This document shows, one piece after another, positions 1 to 19,571 of a stretch of DNA of 64,000 nt. The DNA comes from a virus (taxonomy: Duplodnaviria; Caudoviricetes), in the IMG/VR virus record IMGVR_UViG_3300011989_000005, positions 70,183 to 134,182 of that record. One strand, 5' to 3'. Both the position numbers and the translations under genes were made by a program. The notes beneath the pieces are model-generated. The model did not search any database. It saw nothing but the letters and a program-made list of their open reading frames with translations, and was not told where the DNA came from. The stretch's first letter is position 1. Each line of letters opens with the position of its first letter.

Positions 1-275
1 TTCATGATGTTGGCGTAGAAGTAGTGATCGTAGTAGTTGCGCACCGTCTCGGCTATGCGCTGGGTGGTGAACGTCAGCGGATATACCACCGTGTTGGCAT
101 GGCACGTAGTCTCGATGCCGTAGCTGTGCAGGCGGTAGTGCTTTCCGTCCTCGTCCTCCGCTATCTCGACGTAGCAGAGTTTCGCAGTGCTGTCGTACAC
201 CCACATGCCGGTGGTGCAGTCCTTTATCTGCCGCTCCGGCTTGCTGTAGTAGTATGGGATTTCTCTCTGTTCCAT
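1..275 (-). CDS. Hypothetical protein, partial (runs off the left edge)
   Basis: ATG at 275 after an A-rich leader; open frame MEQREIPYYYSKPERQIKD... to the window edge; not in the ORF track. Confidence 0.7.
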   Translation of the reverse strand, partial: MEQREIPYYYSKPERQIKDCTTGMWVYDSTAKLCYVEIAEDEDGKHYRLHSYGIETTCHANTVVYPLTFTTQRIAETVRNYYDHYFYANIM

Positions 276-286
276 TTTTGTTTTGT

Positions 287-1006
287 TTAATGTTTACGAT
301 TCTTCTTCCTTGACTGCTTCTGCGCCTTAGCCTTTGCCTTGCGCTTCTTCTTGTTGACAGGGCTGGGCGGCGTGTAGTTATTGTGCCGCCCGAAGCGCTC
401 GTAGTCCTCGTGGCTCAGCCGTCCAATCTTCCCCACCATTTCGGGGCTGGCGTTTGCGCCGATGTCAACTCGTCGCCCTGCCTCAGACTGTAGCGCCTCG
501 AACTGCTCGCGGCTCAGATAGTCAACGAAGTGCCGCTCATGCTGGCGGTCCATGTAAGTAATCTGATAGCCCGTCAGGTCGTGATGCTCGCCCGACTTGT
601 CACACACGCGGCCAAGGATTTCGAGCAGATGCCAGCCGTCCATGTAGATAGCGTCCTCGATGTGCTTCGGAAAACCGAAGTCCGAGCTGCTGTCGTATAG
701 CGTCACCATCCGCTTCTCGCCGTTCACGCCCCAGAAGCCGCCGCCGTCGCACCGTCCGTGGCGGATCTCGTCAGAGGAGAGCAGCGTGCGGTGCATATCG
801 ACGTAGCTGGCCCGGAACTTAAAGAGCGCCCCGTGCCTCACGATGACGTACTTCGGCTGCAGATCCTCGCGCAGATGCTCACGCTCCATCAGTTCCTCTA
901 ACTCGTCGCTATCGTTTCGTATCAGTTCTTTGATTCTCTCGTCAATGCCTTTCTCGGCATTCGCCCCGAGCATCTGCCGGAGCTCGTTGTACCTTTGGTC
1001 TTGCAT
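287..1006 (-). CDS. Hypothetical protein with basic C-terminal tail
   Basis: 239 aa ORF in a tightly packed minus-strand operon; ends KKKRKAKAKAQKQSRKKNRKH. Confidence 0.8.
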   Translation of the reverse strand: MQDQRYNELRQMLGANAEKGIDERIKELIRNDSDELEELMEREHLREDLQPKYVIVRHGALFKFRASYVDMHRTLLSSDEIRHGRCDGGGFWGVNGEKRMVTLYDSSSDFGFPKHIEDAIYMDGWHLLEILGRVCDKSGEHHDLTGYQITYMDRQHERHFVDYLSREQFEALQSEAGRRVDIGANASPEMVGKIGRLSHEDYERFGRHNNYTPPSPVNKKKRKAKAKAQKQSRKKNRKH

Positions 1007-1025
1007 AATCTTATTTGTTGTTTCA

Positions 1026-1274
1026 TTACAGTTGTTTCACAAACTCGTCGATGTTCTTTATCTCCTTCTCCACGAGGGCGGCCATGAGGGCGTTGAAGGT
1101 GTCGCTCTGGATGACGGCCTCCTTCTGCTTGCGCCCGTCTGCGGCGTAGTTGGTAGGCACGGTGACGGTCACGCTGGCCAGGCTTGGGTAGCTGCTCAGG
1201 ATGTCGTAGATGGTCTGCAGCTCGCGGCGCTTGCGGGCCATGCGCTCCGCCGCTTCAAGGTTCTTCGGGTCCAT
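1026..1274 (-). CDS. Hypothetical protein
   Basis: 82 aa ORF, operon packing, A-rich leader. Confidence 0.75.
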   Translation of the reverse strand: MDPKNLEAAERMARKRRELQTIYDILSSYPSLASVTVTVPTNYAADGRKQKEAVIQSDTFNALMAALVEKEIKNIDEFVKQL

Positions 1275-1320
1275 AATGTTGCTCTTTGTTTTCTTGTTGT
1301 TCTTCCTGTTGTTGTCATAA

Positions 1321-2082
1321 TTAAAATTCGTTTGATTCTTGTTTTTTATCTTTCAGCGGCAAGCCTAATTGTATTCCTAAGATTCGTCTTATATCCGAGA
1401 TGTCTTCAATATATCCCTCAAACATGGTTTCCCATTCGAACACATGAATGATAAAGGCTTCCACTTTAATCTGCATGCCGTACCTGTTCGGGATAAAAAC
1501 CCACAATCGGAATTTCGCATTCCAGTAGCTGTCACTTATCGGTTTGGTCAGATCCAACATGTCGTCCGTTTCCCAGATGCCGATATTATTTCCATGTCCG
1601 TGATACTTCATGTCGGGGAATATCTCCTGGAGCAGCGCATCTACGCTTTCCCTTGTCTCAGAGTAATTTTTCATTCCTTCTTGCAATTTCTTAGTCAGCA
1701 CAGCCAAATACGGCATACCGCCAGGCAGAATATTCCACATTGACCTCGGCTGCAGATACTTCATCTTGCCACATCCGATGCCGAGTATCACCAGTTGTTC
1801 CATCTCAGCGTGGCTGCCCGTCCACTGCGTCCCGTCCTCGCGGGTGCAAAGATTCAGGAACGACCATCCTCCACCGTCCGTCTCGCGGAACCCTCGGGGC
1901 AGTTGCATGAGCATCCCCTGTATTTCCTCCTGATAGAATTTCAATTTGTCACGACGCATGGCCATCTTTACATTGTACAGCACAGCTTCTACGAGGCGCA
2001 CATTGTCGCCCTCCTTCTCGTCGGACAGGCATTCTCTGAATACCCGTTCCACATTTTCTGATGTCAGTTCCATATTTGTCAT
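1321..2082 (-). CDS. Hypothetical phage protein, possibly a two-domain fusion
   Basis: 253 aa ORF; N-terminal half carries a GGGWSFLNLC...WTG...LPGGMPY segment. Confidence 0.75.
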   Translation of the reverse strand: MTNMELTSENVERVFRECLSDEKEGDNVRLVEAVLYNVKMAMRRDKLKFYQEEIQGMLMQLPRGFRETDGGGWSFLNLCTREDGTQWTGSHAEMEQLVILGIGCGKMKYLQPRSMWNILPGGMPYLAVLTKKLQEGMKNYSETRESVDALLQEIFPDMKYHGHGNNIGIWETDDMLDLTKPISDSYWNAKFRLWVFIPNRYGMQIKVEAFIIHVFEWETMFEGYIEDISDIRRILGIQLGLPLKDKKQESNEF

Positions 2083-2107
2083 AATGTTGTGTGGCTTTAT
2101 TAAATGT

Positions 2108-2329
2108 TTACATTTCTATTATCTCTGCCTCGCTGCGCTTGATGTCGTATGTGCCGTTCTCGTGGTCACAACGGTAGTAGGAGCCGAAGAAGTTGGTCCA
2201 TTGTTCTTTCACTGTCAGCACAGTGCCCTTTGGCAGCGTTGGCTTCTCCTTGAACCACGGTCGCGGGTAGTTCGTCAGCTCATGCAGGTCGTGAGCACAC
2301 ATAGCATTCTCTGTCAGTCGTATCTTCAT
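2108..2329 (-). CDS. Hypothetical protein
   Basis: 73 aa ORF preceded by the AAGGAGG junction motif. Confidence 0.7.
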   Translation of the reverse strand: MKIRLTENAMCAHDLHELTNYPRPWFKEKPTLPKGTVLTVKEQWTNFFGSYYRCDHENGTYDIKRSEAEIIEM

Positions 2330-2332
2330 CGG

Positions 2333-2902
2333 TCAGCCCTCCTTGATCTTAACAATTTCTTTCTTCTCTGCATCCCACTCGAAGCCTATTGACTTCAGTT
2401 TGGAAAACAGACGTTCACACTCGTCTTTGTAAGCCTTGCGGTAGATTCTGCTTCTAAAATTGCCGACACCTATATCCGGTCCGATGGAGGTGTACCCGTC
2501 CTCGATGTTCGTGCAAGCATGGTAGATGATGGCTGTGTTCGTGCCTCCGAACTTGCCCTCTGTGTCGATACCCTTATAGATAAAGATGCACTCACCCGCC
2601 ATCAGGATGTCGCCGTCCTGAGCCGTGCCGTCGGCAGCATTCACACCCTCAATGACTGGCTCGTGGGTGTTGCCGTTGTACTTGCGACCATCCCCGCACA
2701 CGATGTTATCGTCATCGTCATAATGCCAGCAGTCGGGGCAGTATTGCCGTCCGTCAATATCAAGCCAACCGCTCGATGTAGCCTCCGACAGCATATTGCC
2801 GCCGTCGGGATCATCCGTGTAACACGTGAACCCGTCGCCATTGACGAAATGCTCACCGCAGCTATCGCATACGATGATTATGGTTTCTACTTTCTTCTTC
2901 AT
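2333..2902 (-). CDS. Hypothetical protein with zinc-finger-like Cys pairs
   Basis: CDSC and CPDC pairs in a 189 aa ORF. Confidence 0.75.
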   Translation of the reverse strand: MKKKVETIIIVCDSCGEHFVNGDGFTCYTDDPDGGNMLSEATSSGWLDIDGRQYCPDCWHYDDDDNIVCGDGRKYNGNTHEPVIEGVNAADGTAQDGDILMAGECIFIYKGIDTEGKFGGTNTAIIYHACTNIEDGYTSIGPDIGVGNFRSRIYRKAYKDECERLFSKLKSIGFEWDAEKKEIVKIKEG

Positions 2903-2924
2903 TGTCGTATTCCTTTTAATAATT

Positions 2925-3845
2925 TTACTTTCTGTTCGGGTATCGCTCCTTGTAGATGCGGTCGGCCTCGGTGATGATGTTCTGGTAGTCGAAGTCGGGA
3001 TTGTGCTTCTTGATTTCGGCTATCATCAGGTGGCGCTCGATGGTCGTAAGGTCGGCACCATCTACCATCGTCCTGTATAGGTCGTAGTATTGCTTTGCTT
3101 CGTGCTCCCATGACCGTGCCTTGTTCTCAGCCGCCTTCAGTTCGTCCTGCAATTCCTTGTAAGATTTCTCCTGGTGCTTGCTGTCGAGTTCGTCTTGCAG
3201 CCGCTGGCGGTACATCAGCGAATAGTCCACCTGCTCGCGGTAGTTGCGCTGCCAGGTCTTCATGTTGTAGTAGAACTTCTCGCCGAGGTTCAACTCTGCG
3301 TCGGTGTACTTCGTCTTGTGCAGCTGCGGAGCCTTGCGTACTATCTTGATGCTGTGCAGCCACTTGTCTGGCTGGTCCTCAAAACCACCCTTGAAGGTGG
3401 TGACATACACCAGTCCTGCGTAGGGCGGCACCTCGTCGGCATCGAGCAGACCCTCCGGCACGGCATAGTAGAAGTAGTTGGGCATCCGCTCGCCCACGGG
3501 CTTCATTCTGTCCTTGGCCTGCTCTATCGTAATCTGCGGGTAACGCTTGCGCTTCTCTTTGAGCAGGTTGCCAAAGAGGTCTGCCTCGCGTGCCACGGTG
3601 CCCTCGTCGGGCAGGACCGAGTTCAGCAGCAGGTGCTTCTCCACCTTGTGACGGAAGTCGTTCATGTAGTCCGAGCGGCTTATCTTGATCTCGAACTCAT
3701 AGATGTAGCCTGCCTTGGTCCAGATGAGTTTGTCAGACTCCCAGCCGAATACAAACAGCCCGTCAACGCGGTACTTAGGCGAGGCGATGAATCCGCCCAG
3801 CACGTGCTGTATCTTCTGCTCGGTCAGTGTGGTGTCGATTGGCAT
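2925..3845 (-). CDS. PD-(D/E)xK-like nuclease-fold protein (MmcB-like) with coiled-coil C-terminus
   Basis: WESD...YIYEFEIKISRSDY and PNYFYYAVP motifs. Confidence 0.6.
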   Translation of the reverse strand: MPIDTTLTEQKIQHVLGGFIASPKYRVDGLFVFGWESDKLIWTKAGYIYEFEIKISRSDYMNDFRHKVEKHLLLNSVLPDEGTVAREADLFGNLLKEKRKRYPQITIEQAKDRMKPVGERMPNYFYYAVPEGLLDADEVPPYAGLVYVTTFKGGFEDQPDKWLHSIKIVRKAPQLHKTKYTDAELNLGEKFYYNMKTWQRNYREQVDYSLMYRQRLQDELDSKHQEKSYKELQDELKAAENKARSWEHEAKQYYDLYRTMVDGADLTTIERHLMIAEIKKHNPDFDYQNIITEADRIYKERYPNRK

Positions 3846-3847
3846 AG

Positions 3848-4357
3848 TCAGTCCTCCTTAATAATATCTTCCGAACCTTCGGCAAACCTGTGCAACGGGA
3901 ATCTGCCATCTGAAATCCATTCGCGTAGCACGTCCATCAGCGAGGAGGTCATGTGCTTGATGCACTCCACGATGTAGCGCGTGGCCTCCTTTCCGTCGTT
4001 GTCGCGGATGAAGTCGCGGATGTTTCCGCATTGATAAGCCATCTTGTAGTACCGCTCGTTGTATTTCAGATTGATGAATATCATCGGGAACGGCTCTCTG
4101 GTCCGCGAACCGACAAGAACCTCATACCATCCGCCTACGCAATCGCCGCGGCCGTCGTTTCCGATGTTGAAGATAATGTTCTTGATTGCAGCCAGACGGT
4201 AGTTCTCCTGCAAACACTTCACATACTTGACTCGTTTCTCCGTGCCATTGATACCGCAAATGCCTATGCAGTTCTCCGGCGCGTGTTCTGTTGCAACGAA
4301 AAACCCGCGCATCGTCAGTTCTTCGCTTAATGTTTCATAAAAAAATCTTTCTATCAT
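3848..4357 (-). CDS. Hypothetical protein
   Basis: 169 aa ORF, operon packing. Confidence 0.7.
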   Translation of the reverse strand: MIERFFYETLSEELTMRGFFVATEHAPENCIGICGINGTEKRVKYVKCLQENYRLAAIKNIIFNIGNDGRGDCVGGWYEVLVGSRTREPFPMIFINLKYNERYYKMAYQCGNIRDFIRDNDGKEATRYIVECIKHMTSSLMDVLREWISDGRFPLHRFAEGSEDIIKED

Positions 4358-4409
4358 ATTTCTTTATTAGTGTCAATTCGTTAAATTCGTTTGTTGAAAG
4401 AGAATTTGC

Positions 4410-4934
4410 TCATCGCACTGGCAGCGGCTTGAAGTTCGTTTCTTGGTAGTAGTCTTTGGGGTGCGTCTTGATGTACTCCTTGACTCGCTTGATACGCTTC
4501 GTCTTGAAGAATCCGCAGGCATCCTCTTTTTCGTCCACTTGCAGAAGAAGTTCGACGGGACCCTTGTAGTGGTTGTTCCTCTCGTTGCATTCTTTATTCA
4601 TGCCAATGCTGGCACAGTCGCCGTAGTGGTCTTTCGTGCCGTCTGTCTTTACATAGGCCATGTAGTAGCCGCATTGTCCGCATTTCCGGCACATTCTCCG
4701 ATTCTTCCTACAGGCGATGACCTTTTGAACATAGTCAGCCCATAGTTCCTGCTGGCTGACGGTTGTCGTGCCATACCACCAACGCTGCCGGTGCTTGCCG
4801 TACCAGCGATATACAATCAACCTGTCGTCTTCTCGCTCCGGGTGGGGCAGAATATGCAACACATGAGCCTTGCACACATCTTCCTCTGCCCTGTCGTCGT
4901 AGAAGTAATACTGCTTGCCTTCCTCTATTTTCAT
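4410..4934 (-). CDS. Hypothetical Cys-rich protein
   Basis: 174 aa ORF with CRKCGQC; junction motif upstream. Confidence 0.75.
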   Translation of the reverse strand: MKIEEGKQYYFYDDRAEEDVCKAHVLHILPHPEREDDRLIVYRWYGKHRQRWWYGTTTVSQQELWADYVQKVIACRKNRRMCRKCGQCGYYMAYVKTDGTKDHYGDCASIGMNKECNERNNHYKGPVELLLQVDEKEDACGFFKTKRIKRVKEYIKTHPKDYYQETNFKPLPVR

Positions 4935-4937
4935 CGC

Positions 4938-5342
4938 TCAGTCCTCCTTATCTTCTAATAGTCCTGCCACGCGCTCTTTCAGGTCTCGGTATTTCTTCTC
5001 CCAATAGCTTGGCCCGTGTTCCCAGTCTATCACGATGGGCACGAGGTGCAGGTCGTAGTCAATATTCATAGTTACGTTTCCATCTTGCTGCATTGTGTCA
5101 ATTTTCGGTTCTGACGCTTCCCATTGCGGCATAACCTCAAAACATAATTTCCATAGACTGACGCCACGGCACTGCGCCATATTGTAAAGCGTCATATTGG
5201 CGCGACATATCAGTTCTGCCTCCTGTTTGTCGGCATGATGCCGCAGATAAGTTTGCAGTTCGCCGTTGATGCGCTCTTCCAACTGAAGCATCTTTTGTCC
5301 GTTCTCAGGTGGCATCATGGCCACTTCATTTTGTTCTATCAT
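4938..5342 (-). CDS. Hypothetical protein
   Basis: 134 aa ORF, ATGA overlap with the upstream gene. Confidence 0.75.
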   Translation of the reverse strand: MIEQNEVAMMPPENGQKMLQLEERINGELQTYLRHHADKQEAELICRANMTLYNMAQCRGVSLWKLCFEVMPQWEASEPKIDTMQQDGNVTMNIDYDLHLVPIVIDWEHGPSYWEKKYRDLKERVAGLLEDKED

Positions 5343-5875
5343 TGTTTCTCCAGTTTAAATCTATAGCATCTGTTGTTTTGATAATGCTGCTGGCACCACT
5401 CGTGGTTGCTGGTCGTGCCGAAGCGGTGCTGGCATCGGGAGCAGCATGGGCCATTGAACTTCTGCTTGCGCGTTACCACAGGAGGCATTATGTCGAGATA
5501 TGGCCGTGCCATGATGTCAAACGTCCGCTCGTCCACAGGCTTGTCGTTGACAGCCTTGTAGGCGCCAGTCTCGAAGGCTCCCACCAGATAGCGTTCCTCT
5601 ATCTCGTCATCGAAGGGCGAGCCGTCCTTGGGGTACGCCGTTGTCAGCACCATGCCGCGCTCGGCATCGTAGCCCCGGATTTCGAAATAGTCAATCGGAG
5701 AGCTGAACGTCGGGCGGAACCGGCGGCCTTTCAGCTCGCCATACTGCTGTTCCTTGTTCAGAGTCCATGCTGTTTTATCTCCGTCTGGCGTATGGCAGAT
5801 GCCTGCGTATGTGCAGCATAACTTGCCCTCTTCGACTCTCATACCATATAGACAGGTATCACACACTTTATCCAT
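5339..5875 (-). CDS. Hypothetical Cys-rich protein
   Basis: 178 aa ORF with Cys clusters at both ends. Confidence 0.75.
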   Translation of the reverse strand: MDKVCDTCLYGMRVEEGKLCCTYAGICHTPDGDKTAWTLNKEQQYGELKGRRFRPTFSSPIDYFEIRGYDAERGMVLTTAYPKDGSPFDDEIEERYLVGAFETGAYKAVNDKPVDERTFDIMARPYLDIMPPVVTRKQKFNGPCCSRCQHRFGTTSNHEWCQQHYQNNRCYRFKLEKQ

Positions 5876-5887
5876 AACATAACGATT

Positions 5888-6187
5888 TTAATTCCCGTTT
5901 CCGGAGTTCTGTTCTATCAGGTGATCCATCTTCACGTTGCGAAAATTACTGCCATACTCGGCATTCAGGCCGTCGTACCGTGCGGCACACTCTTTGATAA
6001 TATCGCGGATGACGGGATAGCGCATCATCGCAAAGAGTATCTGCGCCGAAATCTCGTTGGCCTTGCCACTAATCACAAAATGGTTGCCCTGATGGCCGAT
6101 GAACATAAACGAGGCGTCGCTGCCCTGCAGGGTTTCGAGCCGCTGCTGAACGTCATCGAACACTTGCTTAATTTCGTTCTCTTTCAT
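5888..6187 (-). CDS. Hypothetical protein
   Basis: 99 aa ORF, operon packing. Confidence 0.75.
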   Translation of the reverse strand: MKENEIKQVFDDVQQRLETLQGSDASFMFIGHQGNHFVISGKANEISAQILFAMMRYPVIRDIIKECAARYDGLNAEYGSNFRNVKMDHLIEQNSGNGN

Positions 6188-6205
6188 AATTCGTCTTGTT
6201 AAGTA

Positions 6206-7045
6206 TTATATATACCTTTCCTTCTGATAGCCACGGACGATGACGGCATGGTCGCGCTCGTCAACGGTGATGCCCGTCTTCCAAGGACAGATGCTGCCAA
6301 TGCTGTTGTCGGGTACGCCTGCCTGCTCCAATAGTCTGCTCAACGCATCGTTTGGCCCGTAGTCGCAGTACGGCTTACTATTCACCCAGCCGTATTTGCC
6401 ATCATTATAGCGGCATCCGCCAAGGTAGTATTCCTTGCAGAGCTTGCGGAACTTCTCAATGACCTCGCTGCTGATGCCGCGCTTGGCCTTGTCTTTGGCG
6501 AGCGTGCCGAACACCATTGCCAGTCCGCCTGCGTCCGACAGGTCGCCGTTGTCCTGCATGTGGTTGCCGAATATCATGCGCGTCCACTCGTCGGCTGCTA
6601 TCTGGCAGGCTTCTTCCATTGTGTGACGCTGGCCGTGGCGATAGACGTATTCCCATTCCACGAGTTTCGTCCACTTCTCGAAGCGGTCGTCGTGCCATCC
6701 GTAGAAGTATTCCCGCCATTCCTTATACTCATCGGAGTCGTATTCAGGCTCTGGCCAATATTGCTCCTGCAGTCGGGCTTGTATGGTGTATCGCAACTTG
6801 CGCCACGAATCCACCTCGTTCATCACTTGCACTACGATGGGTGCTGCCTGCTCTCGTTTGATGCGGTCGCACTCGGGGAATGCGGTCATCAGTTCCTCGT
6901 CGGTTCTGCGTTTCGTCTGTTCTTCCATACGCTGTTGTGCTAAGGGTTTTGCTAAGTATTGCTGTCTGAATTGCTCTGGCGTGAAGCGGCGTGCAAGCCG
7001 CTTTATCCAGTCCATGCCTAATATCTTTTTTTCAGATGTTTCCAT
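6206..7045 (-). CDS. Hypothetical protein
   Basis: 279 aa ORF, operon packing. Confidence 0.8.
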   Translation of the reverse strand: METSEKKILGMDWIKRLARRFTPEQFRQQYLAKPLAQQRMEEQTKRRTDEELMTAFPECDRIKREQAAPIVVQVMNEVDSWRKLRYTIQARLQEQYWPEPEYDSDEYKEWREYFYGWHDDRFEKWTKLVEWEYVYRHGQRHTMEEACQIAADEWTRMIFGNHMQDNGDLSDAGGLAMVFGTLAKDKAKRGISSEVIEKFRKLCKEYYLGGCRYNDGKYGWVNSKPYCDYGPNDALSRLLEQAGVPDNSIGSICPWKTGITVDERDHAVIVRGYQKERYI

Positions 7046-7803
7046 GTCCGTTCTTTTAATATCCTGTCTGCTTTCTCTCCGTCATAGTGGTCGCCGCCAA
7101 GAGCGTCCATAAACTCTGCGTAGTCTTCCTGCGTCATTCCGTTGTGCTGACGGCGGAAGAAGGTGTCGTAGGTGTCGAACGAGAACATCGGCACACCGTT
7201 GAAGATACCGTAACACATTCCGAATACTTTTCCTATGTGACGTGTAATCTTCAGGCAGTCCTCCTTACTGTACTTGTAAGGGTACTCAATAAGGAACATG
7301 CCGCTGCGGGTCGAATAGACGGGTACGATGTCCAGCACCTTGTCTGTTCCTAACTCGCGCACTTTGAAGTCGCAGATAAACATGTGACTCTTCAAGTCCT
7401 CGCGTATCTTCCTCTCCCGTTCCCATACCGGCTGCATACGCTCACGGTACTTCCTGCGCTCCGACAGGCTGCCGTTCGGGTCGTACTTGAAGTCAAGTAT
7501 CTCTTCGGCCAGTGTCTCGCCGTCGGTGCAGAGGTCGCGCAGGGCACCGCAGATCATGTGTGCCGCCGTGCCGTTGCAGTCGAACTCCTGAAACTTGTCG
7601 TAAGCCTGGCGGCGACGATCCGCCAGCGGCATCGCCTCATTGTGCATAATCTCGCAAAGGAGCAGCACGCTGTCCACGTAGCGCAGTCCCATCCACGACT
7701 TGCAGTTGTTGTCAACCATCTTGTCGAAATTCTCCCACTTCGATTCTTCGATAACGCCGTGTCCCCGTTCCTTCAGGGCTTCGGCTGAATAATTATCTGT
7801 CAT
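7018..7803 (-). CDS. Hypothetical protein
   Basis: 261 aa ORF, short overlap with the next gene. Confidence 0.8.
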   Translation of the reverse strand: MTDNYSAEALKERGHGVIEESKWENFDKMVDNNCKSWMGLRYVDSVLLLCEIMHNEAMPLADRRRQAYDKFQEFDCNGTAAHMICGALRDLCTDGETLAEEILDFKYDPNGSLSERRKYRERMQPVWERERKIREDLKSHMFICDFKVRELGTDKVLDIVPVYSTRSGMFLIEYPYKYSKEDCLKITRHIGKVFGMCYGIFNGVPMFSFDTYDTFFRRQHNGMTQEDYAEFMDALGGDHYDGEKADRILKERTWKHLKKRY

Positions 7804-7809
7804 AATTCG

Positions 7810-8286
7810 TTATTTTCTTTTTACATTCAACACTTTGAGAATCTGCAGGCACTTGTCGTAGGGTATGCCATTGTACTTTCCATCCTTTCCATCGAAGTCC
7901 ACATAGAAACGGCGGCTTGGCTTGGCAAACTTGTTCCACTGCTTGATGATTTCGCGGATATGATACACCTCCTTGCCGTAGCCTGGAAGATTGATAAAGT
8001 CGCACGGTTTGCAACCGCGATACCACTCATGTTTGCTATTGTACTCGATACCCCATCGGATATCGCCCTCTACCCATACGTGGATAATCTTCTTGATGTA
8101 CTCCTTGCGTTTCCTGCCGCTGCTGCGCTCCCGAGCCCAGCACTGGACGTAGGCGTTGGCGATGTTGTACCACATGCCGTATGACGTACCGTAGTCGCCG
8201 TGGCGCATCTGGTCGTACATCCATTCGAGGCGGTAGTAAGTATGCAGCGGTCCTCGCCCGTGACGTGTCATTCTGACGTGCTTCAT
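7810..8286 (-). CDS. Hypothetical basic, aromatic-rich protein
   Basis: 158 aa ORF preceded by the junction motif. Confidence 0.7.
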   Translation of the reverse strand: MKHVRMTRHGRGPLHTYYRLEWMYDQMRHGDYGTSYGMWYNIANAYVQCWARERSSGRKRKEYIKKIIHVWVEGDIRWGIEYNSKHEWYRGCKPCDFINLPGYGKEVYHIREIIKQWNKFAKPSRRFYVDFDGKDGKYNGIPYDKCLQILKVLNVKRK

Positions 8287-8289
8287 CGT

Positions 8290-8538
8290 TCAGTCCTCCT
8301 TGATATATTTCACTCCAAAGCACCAACGAAGCATACGGCGACGGAACCAGCCAATGCGTTTGAATACTGCGATGCGTGTCATTGACTCTTCATGTTCAAG
8401 GTAGCCGATAGGTTTCGGTGGTGTCTGCACCGTGCAACCATCCATGTCGGATGCCTTGACACCCATCTGGCTAATGGCTTTACCCAACTGTTTTATGCAC
8501 TCCGCAGCCGACGGTTTCTCATTTGTTTCTTTATCCAT
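8290..8538 (-). CDS. Hypothetical protein
   Basis: 82 aa ORF ending in the junction motif (KED*). Confidence 0.7.
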   Translation of the reverse strand: MDKETNEKPSAAECIKQLGKAISQMGVKASDMDGCTVQTPPKPIGYLEHEESMTRIAVFKRIGWFRRRMLRWCFGVKYIKED

Positions 8539-8665
8539 AGTTCCTTATATTCGTTTAATTCGTTCTGTTTTTTGTAAATGAAGAGTGAAGAATGCTGCGA
8601 TTAAGCGAGAGCCATGATGCTTGCATCAATGGCCGAGCGTGAGCAGTATCGGCGAAGCCAATTTG

Positions 8666-8974
8666 CTACTGCTTGGGGGTGATTAGGTAGTCCATATTGC
8701 TCCAACCGCCTGCGGCTTTCACGTTGACGATTTCGCGATACTGCCATGCGTCTGGTATATCGTTGAGCAGTTCGCCGTATCGGTATTCTATGCGAGTGCG
8801 CCAATGGAATCCTTCGCCTGCTGGTCCATCTTTCACCTCGATATATCCCCATTCATTTGGGCGTTGCACCAGCACTTCGTGGATAAACTCGACGATGGTC
8901 TTTGCTTGGTAGTCACTCACGTCGTAGGGTGCGGTCTCATCGCCACCTGTGGGGGCTGTCTGTGTAAACTTCAT
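8666..8974 (-). CDS. Hypothetical phage protein
   Basis: 102 aa ORF preceded by the junction motif. Confidence 0.75.
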   Translation of the reverse strand: MKFTQTAPTGGDETAPYDVSDYQAKTIVEFIHEVLVQRPNEWGYIEVKDGPAGEGFHWRTRIEYRYGELLNDIPDAWQYREIVNVKAAGGWSNMDYLITPKQ

Positions 8975-9456
8975 CGCTCAGTCCTCCTTTCTTTATTATA
9001 AAGATTACTCAACCTCCTGCCGATATATTTCATCTGTTTGGGGAACCACTCGCAGGCTTCATCCTCGCTGTCGAGTACCTGGTCGATTTTCCACGCAAGG
9101 TCGCCCTTGATATCCTCAAAAGATTTCACCTGCTTCAAATCTTCAACAATACAGTTGATGTCATCTTCATTCCAGCTGCAGACGATCAGCGCGGCATTGA
9201 GCAGGCAGCCGCACTCCGCGCAATGGCTGAAATGGTCGCTCTCTGGCGATGTCTCTTCATATACCTGATGATAATACTTACCGCCATCCTCTTTGTCGAG
9301 ATTTCTCGCTTTCTCGGTGGCACAGAGATGGCAATAGTCACCGTCAATCTCTTCCACCTTGAACCCCTCACCGTCGTGCTTCTCAATATAGCACACGCTT
9401 TCAGGGGTAGAAGCCATTTGCCAAATCTCTTTTCTGATGTCTTCTGATAAATTCAT
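8971..9456 (-). CDS. Hypothetical protein with CxxC pairs
   Basis: CHLC and CAEC; start placed at ATG 9456 behind the GGAGG junction motif (track start 9486). Confidence 0.7.
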   Translation of the reverse strand: MNLSEDIRKEIWQMASTPESVCYIEKHDGEGFKVEEIDGDYCHLCATEKARNLDKEDGGKYYHQVYEETSPESDHFSHCAECGCLLNAALIVCSWNEDDINCIVEDLKQVKSFEDIKGDLAWKIDQVLDSEDEACEWFPKQMKYIGRRLSNLYNKERRTER

Positions 9457-9460
9457 ACGC

Positions 9461-9838
9461 TCAGTCCTCCATTGGTTTGCGGTCATTGCCGTTGGTGTGT
9501 ATTCGGTTGTACTCGTCGCATCGGTTCCATAAATCTTCAGGGATTCGTATCACGTCATGCTCGTCGATAATCTGGTGTATATGTCCCCACCGCTCGCAGT
9601 AGTATTCTACAGCCCGCTTATTCGTCGGATTGTCTTTCAGTCCATAGACAAACAGCCCCGAAGACACAAGGTTCTTTGCACTCACTACTTTGTTTATCTG
9701 CTTCGGCTTTTCGTTTTTGAATGGAGATTTATGCCAAGTGCCTTTGGTCAGCAGATACTCTTCGATAATCTTTTCAATGTCCATCTCCCGATAGTCCTTC
9801 AGCGTCGGGTCGCTGTAAAACATGTTGTCCTTAATCAT
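9461..9838 (-). CDS. Hypothetical protein
   Basis: 125 aa ORF. Confidence 0.7.
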   Translation of the reverse strand: MIKDNMFYSDPTLKDYREMDIEKIIEEYLLTKGTWHKSPFKNEKPKQINKVVSAKNLVSSGLFVYGLKDNPTNKRAVEYYCERWGHIHQIIDEHDVIRIPEDLWNRCDEYNRIHTNGNDRKPMED

Positions 9839-9964
9839 ATCGTTCTATTTTTTAATTCTATTCTTTCTTCTAAAGACAGCTGCCAGTGCGGACATTCCTC
9901 GCATCGAATGATTGAAGCTATCCTGCACCATTGCGGTTTTTTCCTTACTCCACATTCCATATCC

Positions 9965-10183
9965 TCACTGTTCGTTTAATTGTACTGCCAGTAATTTCTG
10001 AATCGTGTCGTTTACCTTCTCTTCCGTCGGGAACGGACCGCCGTCAAACAAAAGCATGTGAGGTTCTTTGTCTTCATTAAGAAGCCAGCACTCTATGTGA
10101 ATGCCGTCTTTCACTTTGCTCTTGTCGATTTTTATCTGCTCTGGGTATGCCATCTGGAATAGCATCAATGTGTATCTCGTCAT
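9965..10183 (-). CDS. Hypothetical protein
   Basis: 72 aa ORF preceded by a junction-motif variant. Confidence 0.65.
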   Translation of the reverse strand: MTRYTLMLFQMAYPEQIKIDKSKVKDGIHIECWLLNEDKEPHMLLFDGGPFPTEEKVNDTIQKLLAVQLNEQ

Positions 10184-10187
10184 ACGC

Positions 10188-10595
10188 TCAGTCCCCCTTC
10201 TTTAGCTTAATCTCCATATCCACCGAGCAGTGGGTTATGAAATGTTGCAACTCATGTACCCAACCGATGTTCACGCACTCAATGGGGAATCCGCCCATTT
10301 CGATGCAGTCATGCCCCGCGTGCCACATGCCGTCATTGAACTCGTGTGCCGTCATCTTGCAGAAGTCGTCTGCCCAGAAATAGCGTTTGTCGTACTTGCC
10401 GCCCTCCATGCGGTGCCACCCGATGCTGTCGAAGAACTCGGCAGAGAGTGGTATTGGCTCTACGGTGTCTTCGTGAAACTGTCCGTCTTCGCCTTCTGCT
10501 CTGATGTACGGCGGTACTATTGCAGAGACTTTCAGAATCAGTCCGCTGTGCTTCTGCCTAACGATGTCGCCAGCCATTAACTCTTTTGCTTCCAT
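10188..10595 (-). CDS. Hypothetical phage protein
   Basis: MEAKELMAGDIV...EPIPLS...VHELQH pattern typical of small Bacteroidetes phage proteins. Confidence 0.75.
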   Translation of the reverse strand: MEAKELMAGDIVRQKHSGLILKVSAIVPPYIRAEGEDGQFHEDTVEPIPLSAEFFDSIGWHRMEGGKYDKRYFWADDFCKMTAHEFNDGMWHAGHDCIEMGGFPIECVNIGWVHELQHFITHCSVDMEIKLKKGD

Positions 10596-10600
10596 ATTAG

Positions 10601-11026
10601 CTATTCCGCTCCTTTATTCCACAGTCTGTTCCACCAGTTGCGCTTCATTAGCCGGTCGATGCGCCCGAGCGAACTGTCAAGTTGCTCCTGGCTATGCTTC
10701 AACTGCTCTTTCAGCTCTGAGATTTCCTGCCGCTCCTGGCTCTGGATGCGGTTAGCCATGTCCTTATAAAACTGGCTCTTGGCCTCCTGCTCAATATCGT
10801 CGAAGTTCAGGAACTCGTACTTCTCGGTGCATGAATCCAATGCGTATTCGTTGACCGCCTTCCACGGGTTGCGCGTTATTGTCACCGTCTTCTTGATAAC
10901 CCTCAGACGACCATCCTCTGCTTTGTCTTCGATGGCCTCCGAAAGGTTCCTGTTCTCACACTCCAGTTGTTTTACTCTGTCTCTGAGCGAATCATATTCA
11001 CTCAGTTCAATGTTTAATATTGGCAT
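10601..11026 (-). CDS. Hypothetical coiled-coil protein
   Basis: 141 aa, heptad-rich, ends RNWWNRLWN. Confidence 0.75.
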   Translation of the reverse strand: MPILNIELSEYDSLRDRVKQLECENRNLSEAIEDKAEDGRLRVIKKTVTITRNPWKAVNEYALDSCTEKYEFLNFDDIEQEAKSQFYKDMANRIQSQERQEISELKEQLKHSQEQLDSSLGRIDRLMKRNWWNRLWNKGAE

Positions 11027-11029
11027 AAT

Positions 11030-11341
11030 TCAGTCCTCCTTCGTTGGTGCCAAATCATCCTTGTATGCCCACATGGTATAATTGGCTCCGTATTTCTTGT
11101 TCATTGCATTTACAAACATTGAATCGAAGCCGAGCATACATCTGCTCGGAGGGCTCATATAGCCGCCATCGACATCGTAGAACACTACAGACTTGCTGCT
11201 GTCGGCTTTCTCGTCGATGCTGTGCCACACACTCGGCATCGCTTCAATTTTCGCCAGCAGCACTTGCAGCATTGTATAGACCACTGGAGATGAACTTTCG
11301 TCTGCCTCACCGTTGTTGACAGCCTCCTTGAAGTCCTCCAT
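11030..11341 (-). CDS. Hypothetical protein (start uncertain)
   Basis: 103 aa ORF ending in the junction motif. Confidence 0.6.
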   Translation of the reverse strand: MEDFKEAVNNGEADESSSPVVYTMLQVLLAKIEAMPSVWHSIDEKADSSKSVVFYDVDGGYMSPPSRCMLGFDSMFVNAMNKKYGANYTMWAYKDDLAPTKED

Positions 11342-11414
11342 CTCTTAATCCATCATTCCTCGGATTATCGCCTTAATCTCTTCAATCTGTTTCATATCGT
11401 CATATATACTATTC

Positions 11415-11696
11415 TTATTTATCCGTCACTTGTCCGAAGTCACCCAGCATATCGACGATGAGCGCTTGCATCACACCGTCGAAACCCTCTATCATGTACT
11501 TCAGCCCGCAAGTCATGGTCATCAGGTGTGCCAGTCGCAGGTATTCGGGCGTGCCCTTCTTCTCTTCGCCGAGCTGCTGTAGGCGCTGTGCCATCTGCTG
11601 CGCAGTCTGGTTGATGATGCTCGTCACCATCTGGAAGTCGCGTGTCGCTATCGACAGCGATACTCCCCATAGTCTCTCGTCTTCTGATTTTGCCAT
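11415..11696 (-). CDS. Hypothetical protein
   Basis: 93 aa helical ORF. Confidence 0.7.
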   Translation of the reverse strand: MAKSEDERLWGVSLSIATRDFQMVTSIINQTAQQMAQRLQQLGEEKKGTPEYLRLAHLMTMTCGLKYMIEGFDGVMQALIVDMLGDFGQVTDK

Positions 11697-11705
11697 AGTT
11701 CGTTT

Positions 11706-12218
11706 CTATTTAGTTTGGTTCAACTTGTCAATGCGTTCCTGTAACTCCCTGCTCTCGCGTTCCTTGTCGTAGGGTCGGATGGTGCCCGTTTCTTCCAGCT
11801 CTTGAAGCATCTCACTCATGTTGCCGACGGCGATATACAGGCCCTCAATGATTTTGCTGGTGGAATTGCCGTCGTATTCGTGAGGAAACATTGCGAACAT
11901 CATCCGTTGGTCGGCCTTCAGGCGGTCGATGTGGTCGAAGATGCGCTCCTTCCATGCTTCGACCAGCATTCTTGGGCGAATATACTGCGTTGTCTGGTAG
12001 TCGTCCTCCGTGGTAGCGGGGCGGGGCACTACGTCCATATAGCACTGTCCGAAGGTCTTAAAGCATACCACGTCGGAGCGGTGCGGGTCATCGTTCTTCA
12101 CGTGGATGATGTCGGGATAGTCCATCACTTCCATCCGGCGGTAGAACTGCCGGTTGATAAGTCGGTGCGTCTCGATAGACGACGGCTGTTGTTTCTTTAC
12201 TTTGCGGTTGCTGGTCAT
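11706..12218 (-). CDS. Hypothetical protein
   Basis: 170 aa ORF preceded by the junction motif. Confidence 0.75.
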   Translation of the reverse strand: MTSNRKVKKQQPSSIETHRLINRQFYRRMEVMDYPDIIHVKNDDPHRSDVVCFKTFGQCYMDVVPRPATTEDDYQTTQYIRPRMLVEAWKERIFDHIDRLKADQRMMFAMFPHEYDGNSTSKIIEGLYIAVGNMSEMLQELEETGTIRPYDKERESRELQERIDKLNQTK

Positions 12219-12446
12219 TATTCAGTCCTCCTTTCTTTCACCCGCAGTGCCCGAAACCTCGGTTGACCGGCTCGTAGGTGGCGCAATGCCCGTAGCCTAC
12301 CTTTCGGTATAGGGTTTCTCCACTTGTGCAGTGACTGGCACCGCCACCTGTTGAGCAGTGGCTCATCTTCAGCGCGTGTTGCGCCATCATGTTTCTAAGA
12401 AATTTTGTCCACATAGCTGTTGATGTTATTAAATGGTTTGTAAATG

Positions 12447-12929
12447 TTATACCCACCCGTTGCTGAGTGAGCCGTCTTCATAGACTACGGCATAGTGTTG
12501 TGGTCGCGGTCTGATCAGACACTTGCGCAATACCTTGATGCCGTGCGCCCAGAGACAGACGCTGTCGAGCTGGAACTGCTTGATAATGTCGCGCAGATAA
12601 TTGAGAGCGCCTATGGTGATGTCGGCGATAGGCTCGGCCAGTCCTTGGCAGACGGTGTGCTTGGCTTCGTCGCTCTGGCGGCTCCACCAGTCGATGGTGG
12701 CGGGGGCGAAGTCCATTCCTTCGACCACACAAGAGCGGAGATCAATGTATGTCACGTATGGCTCTGGCCATGCACAGGCCTGTTCCTCGGTGGTCTCACC
12801 GGTTTCGTCGAGCACAAACGGGTCGCTCTCTGCCTCGCGTCGCCAGGGCACGATGGCCACCTGCATCGGTGCGGCGTTGGCTGTCAGGGCGAAGGTCTCA
12901 AAGTCGATGGTAAAATCTAAGTGCTTCAT
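12447..12929 (-). CDS. DEDDh 3'-5' exonuclease-like protein (Rv2179c-like), apparently truncated at the C-terminus
   Basis: TIDFET (ExoI), TIDWWSRQS and LWAHG present; downstream FD and HxAxxD motifs absent. Confidence 0.6.
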   Translation of the reverse strand: MKHLDFTIDFETFALTANAAPMQVAIVPWRREAESDPFVLDETGETTEEQACAWPEPYVTYIDLRSCVVEGMDFAPATIDWWSRQSDEAKHTVCQGLAEPIADITIGALNYLRDIIKQFQLDSVCLWAHGIKVLRKCLIRPRPQHYAVVYEDGSLSNGWV

Positions 12930-12933
12930 TGTC

Positions 12934-13092
12934 TTACATTGAAATAATATTTCTACGCTTCAGGATTTCTCTCACTGTGTCGGCATTCACCTTGGCGATG
13001 CTGGCGATGTTCGCTACGTGCCATCCTTCTCTCTGCAGCCGGATGACTTGTTGTTCGAGGGTATTGCCTCCATGTACTCTTGCTGTTGTCAT
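12934..13092 (-). CDS. Small helix-turn-helix protein (52 aa)
   Basis: Manual translation MTTARVHGGNTLEQQVIRLQREGWHVANIASIAKVNADTVREILKRRNIISM; below the ORF-track cutoff. Confidence 0.65.
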   Translation of the reverse strand: MTTARVHGGNTLEQQVIRLQREGWHVANIASIAKVNADTVREILKRRNIISM

Positions 13093-13125
13093 AATACTTC
13101 AGTCGGTTGTTTAGGTTAATAATCA

Positions 13126-13347
13126 TTATCTATTGTATCTGAATGAGATTCGTCCACGTGTGAGGTCGTAGGGCGAGAGCTCCACCTCCACGCGGTCGCC
13201 CGCCACGATGCGGATATGGTTCTGACGCATCCTGCCAGAGAGTGTGGCGAGGATGGTGACGCCATTGTCGAGATGAACATGGTAATTATCATAGCCAAGT
13301 GACTCGGTTACCTGACCTTCACTTTTAATGCAGTCTTTTTTGCTCAT
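13126..13347 (-). CDS. infA: Translation initiation factor IF-1
   Basis: 73 aa with IF-1 signature EGQVTESL...LDNG...ILATLSGRMRQNHIRIVAGDRVEVELSPYDLTRGRISFR. Confidence 0.95.
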   Translation of the reverse strand: MSKKDCIKSEGQVTESLGYDNYHVHLDNGVTILATLSGRMRQNHIRIVAGDRVEVELSPYDLTRGRISFRYNR

Positions 13348-13367
13348 GTCTCGTTGTGTCCTGGTTT

Positions 13368-13826
13368 TTATTTATCATAATTATTATTATCTTGCATTTC
13401 AGTTTTAGTTTTTTTACGCCTTCTTTCCCGCTCGTGCTGGCGGAAATCAGCGTCTCTCCAGTATTTCCGCCGCCGCTTTTCCAGATAGTTCTGATGACGT
13501 CGCTCATTGTCGTGCTCCAAGAACGGGCTGCTGAACTCCTGTTGGTTATCGGCCAACTCATGCAGTATGCGGATGGCTTCGCACTGATCCCCGGTCATGT
13601 CACTAAGGATGGGCAGGGCTGCAACACAATCCTGAAGCAGAAGTTTGATGTTCTCAACCCGTCGCCGCTGTATAGCCGTCCACCGCAGCTGACGCTGACG
13701 CTCGCGTTTCACAGTCCGATAGTAAGCGGTTTTAGCTGCCTCTTTTGACGGTCCGCTGTATATCCACACCGCACGGCCTGTGCGACATGAGTGACGGATG
13801 ATTGTCGTTATCAATGATGGTCTCAT
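13368..13826 (-). CDS. Hypothetical basic protein
   Basis: 152 aa Arg/Lys-rich ORF between the primase and infA. Confidence 0.65.
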   Translation of the reverse strand: MRPSLITTIIRHSCRTGRAVWIYSGPSKEAAKTAYYRTVKRERQRQLRWTAIQRRRVENIKLLLQDCVAALPILSDMTGDQCEAIRILHELADNQQEFSSPFLEHDNERRHQNYLEKRRRKYWRDADFRQHERERRRKKTKTEMQDNNNYDK

Positions 13827-13844
13827 GTTAATTGTATGTTTAAA

Positions 13845-18277: not shown

Positions 18278-18567
18278 TTCATCTTACTTTTTTCTTCAAT
18301 GAAGAATTTACCGTATTCACGCCACTGCTTCTCAATGATGGCGTCCTTGTCGGAGATGCGCTCCCTCAGGTTCTCCACGAGCTGCAGAAGCGAGGCAACC
18401 TTTTTCCTTTCGTTCTCCCATTTCTCCAACGCTTTATAATAGAGGTTGTTCAAGCCACGGACATTCTCGCCAGCCAGTCGCAACTTCTCTTCCAGATCGT
18501 CGCGCTCAGCCTGATACGGGTTTTTGCCCTGCAGAATTTGAAGAAGATTCCTGAAGTATTGTTTCAT
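18274..18567 (-). CDS. Hypothetical coiled-coil protein
   Basis: 97 aa, ATGA overlap with the MTase gene. Confidence 0.75.
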   Translation of the reverse strand: MKQYFRNLLQILQGKNPYQAERDDLEEKLRLAGENVRGLNNLYYKALEKWENERKKVASLLQLVENLRERISDKDAIIEKQWREYGKFFIEEKSKMK

Positions 18568-18578
18568 GCCGTCATCTC

Positions 18579-18770
18579 CTACTTAGTCCGTGTGATACAT
18601 ACAGCCGATGCGCCGGAATCCGTGCGCACCTCGTACTCCTTGTTCTCCAGTTTCATGTCATGTACCTGGACCTTGACCGACTTTATCTTCTTCTTGTCAG
18701 TCAAAATGAAGATACGCGACTGCCGGACGCGTATACTTCTTAACTCTTCTTTGCTCACGGTTTCCTGCAT
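18579..18770 (-). CDS. Small basic protein, first gene of the early operon (Cro-position)
   Basis: 63 aa, divergent from the repressor; role inferred from position only. Confidence 0.55.
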   Translation of the reverse strand: MQETVSKEELRSIRVRQSRIFILTDKKKIKSVKVQVHDMKLENKEYEVRTDSGASAVCITRTK

Positions 18771-18829
18771 AAGTTTTTAAAATCTCTTAATTTGTAGGCA
18801 TGAATAACTTGAAAACGAGGGAAAAGCCT

Positions 18830-18837
18830 TACCTTTG
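18830..18837 (+). promoter_or_regulatory. Bacteroidetes -7 promoter box toward the repressor
   Basis: TACCTTTG matches TAnnTTTG; TTG at 18809-18811 upstream. Confidence 0.6.
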
Positions 18838-18950
18838 CAAGTGTTCTAAGTTCGCAAGGCGGCGCACGGCTTCCTTCTGAAAGGCGCTTCATCGCGTCTG
18901 CAGGCTTTCCTTATACCCCCGTCGGAGAGTTAACTAACTAACTCGGGGTA

Positions 18951-18958
18951 CAAAGGTA
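18951..18958 (-). promoter_or_regulatory. Bacteroidetes -7 promoter box toward the early operon
   Basis: caaaggta reads TACCTTTG on the minus strand. Confidence 0.6.
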
Positions 18959-19025
18959 GGGAAAATTTAGCAAAGCCGTGCGTTGTGTAGCAAAGTATTA
19001 ACGTAATTTAATAATAAGGCTAAGT

Positions 19026-19535: not shown

Positions 19536-19571
19536 GCAGGAACGTATTTTTCCCATTATATATAATTATGT

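Follow-up and report, generated by a model that had tools for sequence, protein, structure and literature searches.

A Shine-Dalgarno-stop-start motif repeated at tight gene junctions of a gut-metagenome phage: a possible termination-reinitiation signal that may double as a joint for accessory-gene exchange

A 12-nucleotide (nt) motif recurs between small minus-strand genes of a phage genome (IMG/VR record IMGVR_UViG_3300011989_000005; Caudoviricetes), where it combines a Shine-Dalgarno (SD) sequence with a stop codon and is followed almost immediately by an ATG. The record comprises 134,182 bp and is rated complete by CheckV. The motif lies in its right-hand 64 kb (positions 70,183 to 134,182), the whole 64,000-nt stretch analysed here, which will be referred to as the window and whose numbering is used unless a genome position is indicated. 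The locus raises the question which function an SD can have in a phage of a presumed Bacteroidota host, since according to the Fredrick and Ortega groups ribosomes of the Bacteroidia read an SD only once the 16S tail leaves the bS21/bS18/bS6 pocket (PMC13000457, PMC13000453, PMC9976891). A preliminary description of this DNA had offered two alternatives, translational coupling of neighbouring genes and shuffling of small genes as cassettes. Both gain support from the analyses reported here and are mutually compatible, and we favour, with a probability of about 0.5, a termination-reinitiation junction with a by-product role as recombination joint.

Searching the window for AAGGAGGACTGA with at most one mismatch yielded 10 matches, all on the minus strand and between positions 2333 and 12233 (Table 1). 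The mean of 100 dinucleotide shuffles was 0.41 with a maximum of 4, and none of the shuffles reached 10. The earlier observation of a repeated motif was confirmed. With up to two mismatches, 14 matches were obtained compared to 5.44 expected. Six of the ten copies are exact, and these six are the only exact occurrences in the entire genome. Nine copies, precisely those listed in the preliminary description, sit 2–4 nt 5′ of an ATG (spacers CCG, CT, GCG, ACG, GCG, GCGT, GCGT, ATT and ATA), whereas the tenth at 7255–7266 had been overlooked. In seven copies (2333, 3848, 4938, 8290, 9461, 10188 and 11030) the motif is read in the frame AAG-GAG-GAC-TGA with the TGA closing the upstream open reading frame (ORF), whose product ends in KED or, at variant copies, in KEG, MED or KGD. 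The frames also agree with the earlier statement that the TGA is no upstream stop at 8978 and 12222. At 8978 this is because the upstream ORF runs in a different frame, its stop codon being part of an ATGA overlap. Copy 12222 is nevertheless located close behind a stop codon as well, since ORF 12238–12456 ends 19 nt before the ATG.

GGAGG, the complement of the CCUCC core of the anti-SD in the 16S 3′ tail (as given in PMC13000457), is present in eight of the ten copies; the copy at 10188 reads GGGGG and that at 2333 GGAGGG. Most copies offer AAGGAGG only, corresponding to about 7 bp of pairing, and the copies at 8978 and 12222 lengthen the pairing by A/G-rich letters. We read the 12-mer as a start-associated junction in which a 7-nt SD (AAGGAGG), located 7–9 nt before the ATG, is fused to the TGA of the preceding gene.

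Genes of the complete phage were called with a crude home-made codon-score method, which is not a validated predictor and gave 168 genes covering 87% of the genome. An SD was scored as strong at a duplex energy of −9 kcal/mol or lower, a home-made threshold applied to an assumed 16S tail. Strong SDs were found at 22 of the 168 genes and are absent from the other 146, most starts having A-rich leaders without SD. They clearly accumulate at tight junctions, defined by a gap of at most 5 nt or an overlap (17 of 33 versus 5 of 135 other starts; Fisher p = 2e-10). Resolved by gap class, a strong SD was present at 6/9 genes with overlap, 11/24 with a gap of 0–5 nt, 1/25 with 6–15 nt, 3/29 with 16–30 nt, 0/32 with 31–100 nt, and 1/47 with more than 100 nt, the latter being copy 12222. 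Outside the tight junctions, four strong SDs are found at gaps of 12–20 nt and the last one behind an uncalled ORF ending 19 nt upstream. Because copy 12222 trails this uncalled ORF (12238–12456), no strong SD is more than 20 nt away from a stop codon on its upstream side, and operon-leading genes have essentially none.

Sixteen of the 22 strong SDs are located in the minus-strand arm encoding a primase, the translation initiation factor IF-1, an exoribonuclease-like protein and a DNA methyltransferase. The preliminary description had proposed to compare early with late genes, and the counts by arm do differ (16 of the 72 genes in the primase/IF-1 arm versus none of the 20 in the head-protease arm), the label "early" being itself a presumption. 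Such clustering would also suit an SD-led regulon whose genes are initiated de novo instead of by reinitiation, the ribosomes having an exposed anti-SD because they lack bS21 or are remodelled in infection. Flavobacterium johnsoniae ribosomes without bS21 indeed gain translation of SD-led mRNAs (PMC9976891, PMC13000457), and two copies of the motif extend the pairing towards the tail. De novo initiation would, however, favour SDs at operon leaders too, where at most one of the 47 genes with a gap above 100 nt carries one. In addition, the roughly 7 bp of most copies are far below the 9–13 bp helices typical of rpsU (PMC9976891), and no bS21 gene is present in this phage. We consider this explanation quite unlikely.

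The motif is one of several linkers, a small set of which supplies the junctions of this phage. GTAACGACT-ATG was found at six tight junctions of the plus-strand arm (genome 22.5–27.7 kb and 40.5–41.9 kb, outside the window), (A/T)AAGAGCGAT-ATG at several minus-strand genes near genome position 61–68 kb, and AAAGCTACAC..ATG at genes with long upstream gaps, a variant of the latter preceding ORF 1321–2082 of the window. Apparently decayed forms of the motif, with altered SD letters but an unchanged ACTGA or ACTG (..GATAGACTGA.., ..AAAGGACTGA.., ..GAGAAGACTGTGG..), were located outside the window at genome 62710–63333 and 53313–53498 and also at L067:2950–2995, and suggest that the SD part can vanish while the junction persists.

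A primase search of IMG/VR resulted in nine loci, and five whole records (G001–G005) were fetched; further records (G006–G010) were found via accessory genes. With at most one mismatch, the motif occurs 3, 10, 8, 11 and 0 times in G001 to G005 and 4, 11, 6, 10 and 1 times in G006 to G010, respectively, compared to 0–3 copies of a reversed-pattern control. The preference of SDs for tight junctions over other starts recurs in three of the five primase relatives (12/27 versus 9/125 in G002, 12/30 versus 10/119 in G003 and 16/32 versus 10/150 in G004), with p values from 1e-5 to 3e-8. Only five of the 23 ORFs of the block 1026–12218 have homologues in the five primase relatives; the block is therefore hypervariable, and the motif stands in the relatives mostly beside unrelated genes. 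The copies of G002, G003 and G004 accordingly adjoin for the most part genes unrelated to those of the window. Scanning the collection for the motif followed by an ATG gave at least 118 viral-contig stretches, with a single match each among the 80 listed, and therefore carries no information on the spread of the repeated form. Since such single instances are common, one might argue that nothing special is seen here, the host using SDs anyway or the copies being due to shared ancestry or chance. Against this stand the 146 of 168 genes without a strong SD, the shuffles that never reached the observed count, and the flanking genes, which are mutually unrelated and mostly also unrelated to those flanking the relatives' copies. 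An explanation of this kind is hardly credible.

Composition around the SD was evaluated for six whole phages together. In 81 of 93 cases a start-proximal GGAGG ends 7–9 nt before the ATG, within the roughly 5–10 nt usual for an SD, and the two letters before it are A and A in 63 and 59 of the 93 sites, which agrees with pairing to a U-rich tail. AC follows GGAGG directly at 46 of the 93 start-proximal sites compared to 11.6% of 1300 internal GGAGG, and the full ACTGA at 28 of the 93. Finally, the stop codon at SD junctions is TGA in 56 of 66 cases, in contrast to 27% of genes elsewhere.

Short motifs at or near the starts of many early or non-structural genes are known as targets of phage factors, as in the case of the T4 RegB and RegA sites and the stoperators of phage L5; RegA and RegB act on ribosome-binding sites as repressor or RNase. 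The motif might likewise be an operator, bound either by an RNA-binding repressor or RNase at ribosome-binding sites or by a DNA-binding protein of the stoperator type. This would account for the letters after GGAGG, which are conserved yet unable to pair with the 16S tail, as well as for copies confined to one strand and one arm, and the same argument has been made for the start-associated sequences of mycobacteriophages (PMC3203893), a report which also mentions the stoperators of Cluster A mycobacteriophages. Stoperators, however, have no fixed distance to start codons, and no factor is needed to explain why the motif is tied to a stop codon and keeps a fixed distance from the ATG. Moreover, the letters following the SD vary between homologous junctions, no factor is known for the motif, and no candidate was found, all 23 genes of the block being without a Pfam family. 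An operator is very unlikely in our view.

For two accessory genes, closer homologues turned up in further viral contigs, and these contigs were compared to this phage by BLASTN. The blocks shared with these contigs are single genes in permuted order. At junction 8290, the upstream 60 nt including the motif match G007 at one place (58/60), whereas the match of the downstream 158-aa gene in G007 is located 3 kb away and follows an unrelated gene, so that homology switches partner exactly at the motif. In front of this 158-aa gene, AAGGAGGA stands at constant spacing no matter which of four different genes lies upstream. When homologous junctions are compared, the SD part is invariant and the following four letters vary (CTGA, ATGA, TTGA, CAAG). 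In G006 and G007, the motif also precedes homologues of the 306-aa gene, although the genes upstream of it are unrelated. For homologues of the 103-aa protein, the last residues are KED, KQD, KEADV or KR depending on the junction and the downstream neighbour. Both partners are orphans in 26 of 66 SD pairs compared to 22 of 100 pairs without SD.

Natural variants were sought in public metagenomes. Twenty runs contain the 10-kb stretch or part of it, all labelled gut metagenome and mostly from ruminants, one of which may be the source of this DNA; no RNA data set is among the public runs listed with the stretch. Contigs of four runs from four studies were compared with window positions 1–14000. 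Contigs cannot show frequencies, and several of the joints have short sides. One contig of run X4 contains a clean joint 10187|11030 with 7 shared letters (shorter side 192 letters, depth 10.9). It lacks exactly the two ORFs between the copies at 10188 and 11030, and one intact junction remains. A contig of run X10 has an insertion of about 2.6 kb located exactly at 11030 and also swaps 8547–10600 for 740 other letters. In a contig of run X2, position 10179 is joined to 8971, thereby connecting junction 10188 to junction 8978. Among 27 distinct joint ends, 8 are at most 12 nt away from a motif copy compared to 0.7 expected (p = 3e-7). Two joints, 3861–12221 (X4; side 20, 35 letters between) and 2925–8282 (X2; side 21), are too weak to be used alone, although their ends entered the tally of 27.

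These joints bring up the explanation that the motif is mainly a portable recombination linker, maintained because it allows clean accessory-gene exchange between co-infecting relatives, like the PeSLs of T4-type phages (intergenic elements of promoter and terminator stem-loop), its SD likeness being of little or no effect in a host unable to read SDs. The partner switch exactly at the motif, the motif-to-motif deletion, the insertion at 11030 and the permuting joint would be expected of a linker, as would the hypervariability of the arm and the excess of pairs in which both partners are orphans. The whole 12-mer including ACTGA is kept at three copies with a non-stop TGA, unrelated upstream proteins all end in KED, and the ends of the 103-aa homologues follow the downstream neighbour. 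On the other hand, a pure linker could do without a perfect match to the anti-SD core and without a constant 7–9 nt between it and the ATG, and it is the SD which is invariant across homologous junctions while the next four letters vary. Furthermore, breakage is no more frequent in SD pairs than in other tight pairs, and homologous recombination would have to act on a very short stretch (12 nt, with 7 shared letters in the event observed). We regard this explanation as unlikely.

Our preferred reading thus remains a termination-reinitiation junction which serves as recombination joint as a by-product. As judged from the sequence, the anatomy is that of termination-reinitiation, with an SD at optimal spacing within the end of the upstream gene, a stop codon 2–4 nt before or overlapping the ATG, and no SDs in leaders. 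On the long polycistronic transcripts of the non-structural arm, a ribosome would end the upstream gene at the TGA, would be held there by SD pairing with the 16S 3′ tail, and would restart at the ATG 2–4 nt downstream, in a phage whose free-standing genes use A-rich SD-less leaders. As the same 12–20 nt recur at many junctions and in related phages, the motif would also act as a short homology, at which single genes or small cassettes could be deleted, inserted and re-joined without harm to either neighbour. The anatomy, the enrichment, the confinement to tight junctions, the presence beside mostly unrelated genes in relatives and single natural breakpoints at the motif are direct observations. 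From these we infer SD pairing with the ribosome of the host, coupled translation, and a motif which is the cause of the exchanges and not just their mark.

Two findings from other organisms are in line with this reading. In Haloferax, the SD is inactive at 5′ untranslated regions and nevertheless aids reinitiation (Huber et al. 2019, PMC6728339), and certain Bacteroidia have moderate SDs before some of their ribosomal-protein genes, among them rpsR of the Bacteroidales (PMC9976891).

A number of observations weigh against it. If the host belongs to the Bacteroidia, its ribosomes are reported to be SD-blind unless bS21 leaves (PMC13000457, PMC13000453), and according to Huber et al. 2019 (PMC6728339) less than 10% of overlapping gene pairs in Bacteroidetes have an SD, reinitiation in this phylum being judged independent of it; the phage therefore departs from the norm of its presumed host. 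Within the phage, 16 of the 33 tight junctions lack an SD, and A-rich, SD-less leaders precede the 306-aa gene's more distant homologues; the SD is therefore dispensable. The association between SD and junction is weak in G001 (p = 0.08) and G005 (p = 0.07). Neither rRNA pairing nor coupling explains the conserved AC after GGAGG or the TGA that is kept where it stops nothing (8978, 12222 and genome position 16424). No translational reading accounts for these two features, which fit a unit copied whole. With regard to exchange, adjacency was kept in 32 of 40 SD pairs compared to 39 of 85 SD-less tight pairs (both partners with homologues; six genomes), and a joint end was observed at 5 of 9 motif junctions versus 4 of 19 other gene junctions, a modest excess (p = 0.10), gene junctions being natural break points in any case. 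Of the two original alternatives, coupling would account for the distribution of strong SDs, which are found almost only at tight junctions in this phage and three of five relatives and not at operon leaders. Cassette shuffling is backed by the partner switch and the deletion 10188–11030, and is held back by the modest excess over other junctions and by SD pairs that are not preferentially broken.

Among known systems the closest analogue, as far as likeness goes, is the start-associated sequence (SAS) of Cluster K mycobacteriophages, a 13-bp one-way repeat with 11–19 copies, which stand 3–7 bp in front of ATGs and are confined to the non-structural half of the genome (Pope et al. 2011, PMC3203893). 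It consists of an SD core and letters unable to pair with 16S rRNA, and its function is described as unproven. Both elements are short asymmetric repeats (12 nt here, 13 bp there) with about 10–19 copies per genome in a single orientation a few nt before ATGs of the non-structural half, the upstream stop codon lies sometimes inside the repeat, and different gene families are served in different phages. The present phage matches this pattern with ten minus-strand copies, nine of them 2–4 nt before an ATG and all in the primase/IF-1 arm. The SAS consensus GGGATAGGAGCCC, however, differs from the sequence found here, and so does the host phylum. In addition, the motif described here includes the stop codon in nearly all cases, copies are almost confined to tight junctions, most other genes of the phage lack an SD, and natural breakpoints at the motif were seen. 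Extended inverted repeats, which accompany about half of the SAS sites (PMC3203893), were not seen in the sequence inspected upstream of the copies, although no dedicated search for them was made, and no conservation is visible there beyond about 5 nt. Since sequence and host differ and no extended inverted repeats were seen, the motif appears to work like an SAS but is not a member of this group.

The arrangement also resembles SD-assisted reinitiation (PMC6728339), with the SD within the 3′ end of the upstream gene and gaps from −4 to a few nt. In contrast to the Bacteroidetes of that study, with SDs at less than 10% of overlaps, about half of the tight junctions have one here, in the form of one stereotyped 12-mer. 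With the PeSLs (Arbiol et al. 2010, PMC2839356) it shares a repeated short regulatory element flanking orphan genes in hyperplastic regions. Recombination between PeSL copies leads to insertions, deletions and replacements (PMC2839356), and of indels bounded by the element we observed one motif-to-motif deletion and one insertion at a copy, besides one permuting joint, with an excess over other junctions of p = 0.10. Unlike PeSLs, which lie between genes, the motif is a predicted translation signal overlapping the upstream coding end; it falls within the final codons of that gene and includes no stem-loop. As an SD in an otherwise SD-less setting it is comparable to the extended SD of rpsU in Flavobacteriales, which is readable only with the anti-SD freed from the bS21/bS18/bS6 pocket (PMC9976891, PMC13000457, PMC13000453). 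The latter, however, comprises 9–13 bp in a monocistronic leader (PMC9976891), whereas here about 7 bp recur at many genes and at junctions only. In the literature searched, we found no account of SD-type junction repeats in phages of Bacteroidota; Cellulophaga phages lack SDs according to one preprint.

Table 1: Copies of the motif and associated features in the window
Feature	Position	Strand	Remarks
Hypervariable block	1026–12218	−	23 small co-directional ORFs, none with a Pfam family
Motif copy AAGGAGGGCTGA	2333–2344	−	TGA stops ORF 2333–2902; 3 nt, then ATG of ORF 2108–2329
Exact motif copy	3848–3859	−	TGA stops ORF 3848–4357 (ends in KED); 2 nt, then ATG of 306-aa ORF 2925–3845
Exact motif copy	4938–4949	−	TGA stops ORF 4938–5342; 3 nt, then ATG of ORF 4410–4934
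Tenth motif copy AAGGAGGACTGC	7255–7266	−	TGC in place of TGA; inside 261-aa ORF 7018–7803, read KEDC; no start codon after it
Exact motif copy	8290–8301	−	Between 82-aa ORF 8290–8538 and 158-aa ORF 7810–8286
Exact motif copy, other frame	8978–8989	−	Upstream ORF 8971–9456 overlaps ORF 8666–8974 via ATGA
Motif copy ATGGAGGACTGA	9461–9472	−	TGA stops ORF 9461–9838; 4 nt, then ATG at 9456
Motif copy AAGGGGGACTGA	10188–10199	−	TGA stops ORF 10188–10595; 4 nt, then ATG of ORF 9965–10183; one deletion end
Two-gene cassette	10188–11029	−	ORFs 10188–10595 and 10601–11026; motif copy at each end; missing from run X4 contig
Exact motif copy	11030–11041	−	TGA stops ORF 11030–11341; 3 nt, then ATG of ORF 10601–11026; other deletion end
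Exact motif copy	12222–12233	−	3 nt before ATG of ORF 11706–12218; TGA closes no ORF having a start codon
Small Cys/His-rich ORF	12238–12456	−	Missed by the gene call; stop 19 nt before ATG at 12218
Translation initiation factor IF-1	13126–13347	−	PF01176, 83 bits; upstream of the motif block, same strand

The internal copy at 7255 could be a chance copy or a fossil of a former junction now fused. A fusion with a paralogue of the 158-aa gene was considered and is unsupported, a homology test of the C-terminal part being negative (BLASTP E = 0.32; the sole homologue spans residues 7–109). Contigs from three of the four runs contain several small insertions at 7332–7358, just downstream of this copy. 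A +1 frameshift of the prfB type, in which an SD is positioned before a stop, was considered and rejected on inspection only, since GAC in the P site cannot re-pair in +1 and the SD abuts the P site. An Rfam search of window positions 1–20000 gave no match.

Depending on the start chosen, the Cys/His-rich ORF behind which copy 12222 is located encodes a possible metal-binding peptide of 58–72 aa, which contains four His-Cys pairs. Between ORFs 8666–8974 and 8290–8538, an element of about 50 nt that forms a hairpin is present at 8594–8651. Its summed contig depth is very high in three of the four rumen-metagenome runs (locally up to 4653 versus about 10 in the flanks), with a smaller local peak in X10, and many contigs have unrelated loose ends on both sides. 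A second copy is located at genome position 381–430 (88% identical) and three copies are found in G003; the element looks like a small dispersed repeat common to many genomes of the habitat.

The preliminary description had further placed an IF-1 gene in the same operon and had suggested a possible link between this gene and the motif. The gene itself was confirmed (Table 1), whereas no support was obtained for the link. IF-1 was detected in G000, G001 and G004 by the Pfam model and in G002 and G003 by blastp. It was not detected in G005 with 0 and G010 with 1 motif copy, nor in G009, which has 10 copies in a record that is only 91% complete; conversely, G001 has IF-1 and only 3 copies. Relatedness confounds this pattern, which gives no support. 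Other phages have IF-1 genes as well. The IF-1 gene is flanked by genes for a protein with an Rv2179c-like 3′-5′ exoribonuclease domain (12447–12929, minus strand; E = 1.7e-10) and for a 1167-aa primase-like protein (13845–17348, minus strand) with a CHC2 zinc finger below the Pfam cut-off.

With respect to the host, SD-less leaders, the primase matches, leads from a protein atlas, the ruminant-gut runs and a few TAnnTTTG sites point towards Bacteroidota, and the earlier label of a Bacteroidetes phage is plausible. The primase matches only four records (Polaribacter and Bacteroides phages) with 24–26% identity, and the atlas matches labelled Bacteroidota are leads only. A search of the phage collection gave no match, either by megablast with the arm or with a 474-aa protein, which was hoped to be the major capsid protein and for which no family scan was made. 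Placing the host by the phage IF-1 was uninformative, as this protein is too diverged (nearest cellular IF-1 41–61% identical, from many phyla). As to promoters, TAnnTTTG is not enriched genome-wide (27 and 18 versus 24 and 19.5 expected); its 7 occurrences in 65 upstream regions, some before leading genes, are a weak hint only. In the divergent intergenic region 18770–19026, upstream of two outward-facing gene arms, TACCTTTG is present on both strands, and these sites are candidate −7 promoter elements of the Bacteroidota type. Elsewhere, the genome encodes a 1684-aa DarB-like antirestriction, methyltransferase and helicase protein (genome 31416–36470, plus strand, outside the window; L062:11416–16470; PHROG 10089, E = 1e-256) with an anti-restriction-like 356-aa protein nearby, and the only tRNA of the window is a tRNA-Gln (CTG) at 62617–62688 on the minus strand.

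If the host does belong to the Bacteroidia, the motif would represent natural use of the anti-SD by SD-blind ribosomes beyond rpsU and a few ribosomal-protein genes. With about ten native junctions per phage, a ready test set would be at hand for SD pairing by terminating or bS21-free ribosomes. The motif would likewise be a concrete, datable example of a translation signal doubling as the joint of gene-by-gene mosaicism in phage accessory regions, and would extend the unexplained phenomenon of start-associated sequences from mycobacteriophages to an unrelated phage group. More speculatively, and decidedly doubtful at this stage, a clade of large ruminant-gut phages, probably infecting Bacteroidales, might carry a translation regulon and chain its accessory genes, as exchangeable plug-in cassettes, by one stereotyped SD-stop-start linker, which within an SD-blind host would be read only by terminating ribosomes or by those whose anti-SD has been freed through loss of bS21 or remodelling by the phage.

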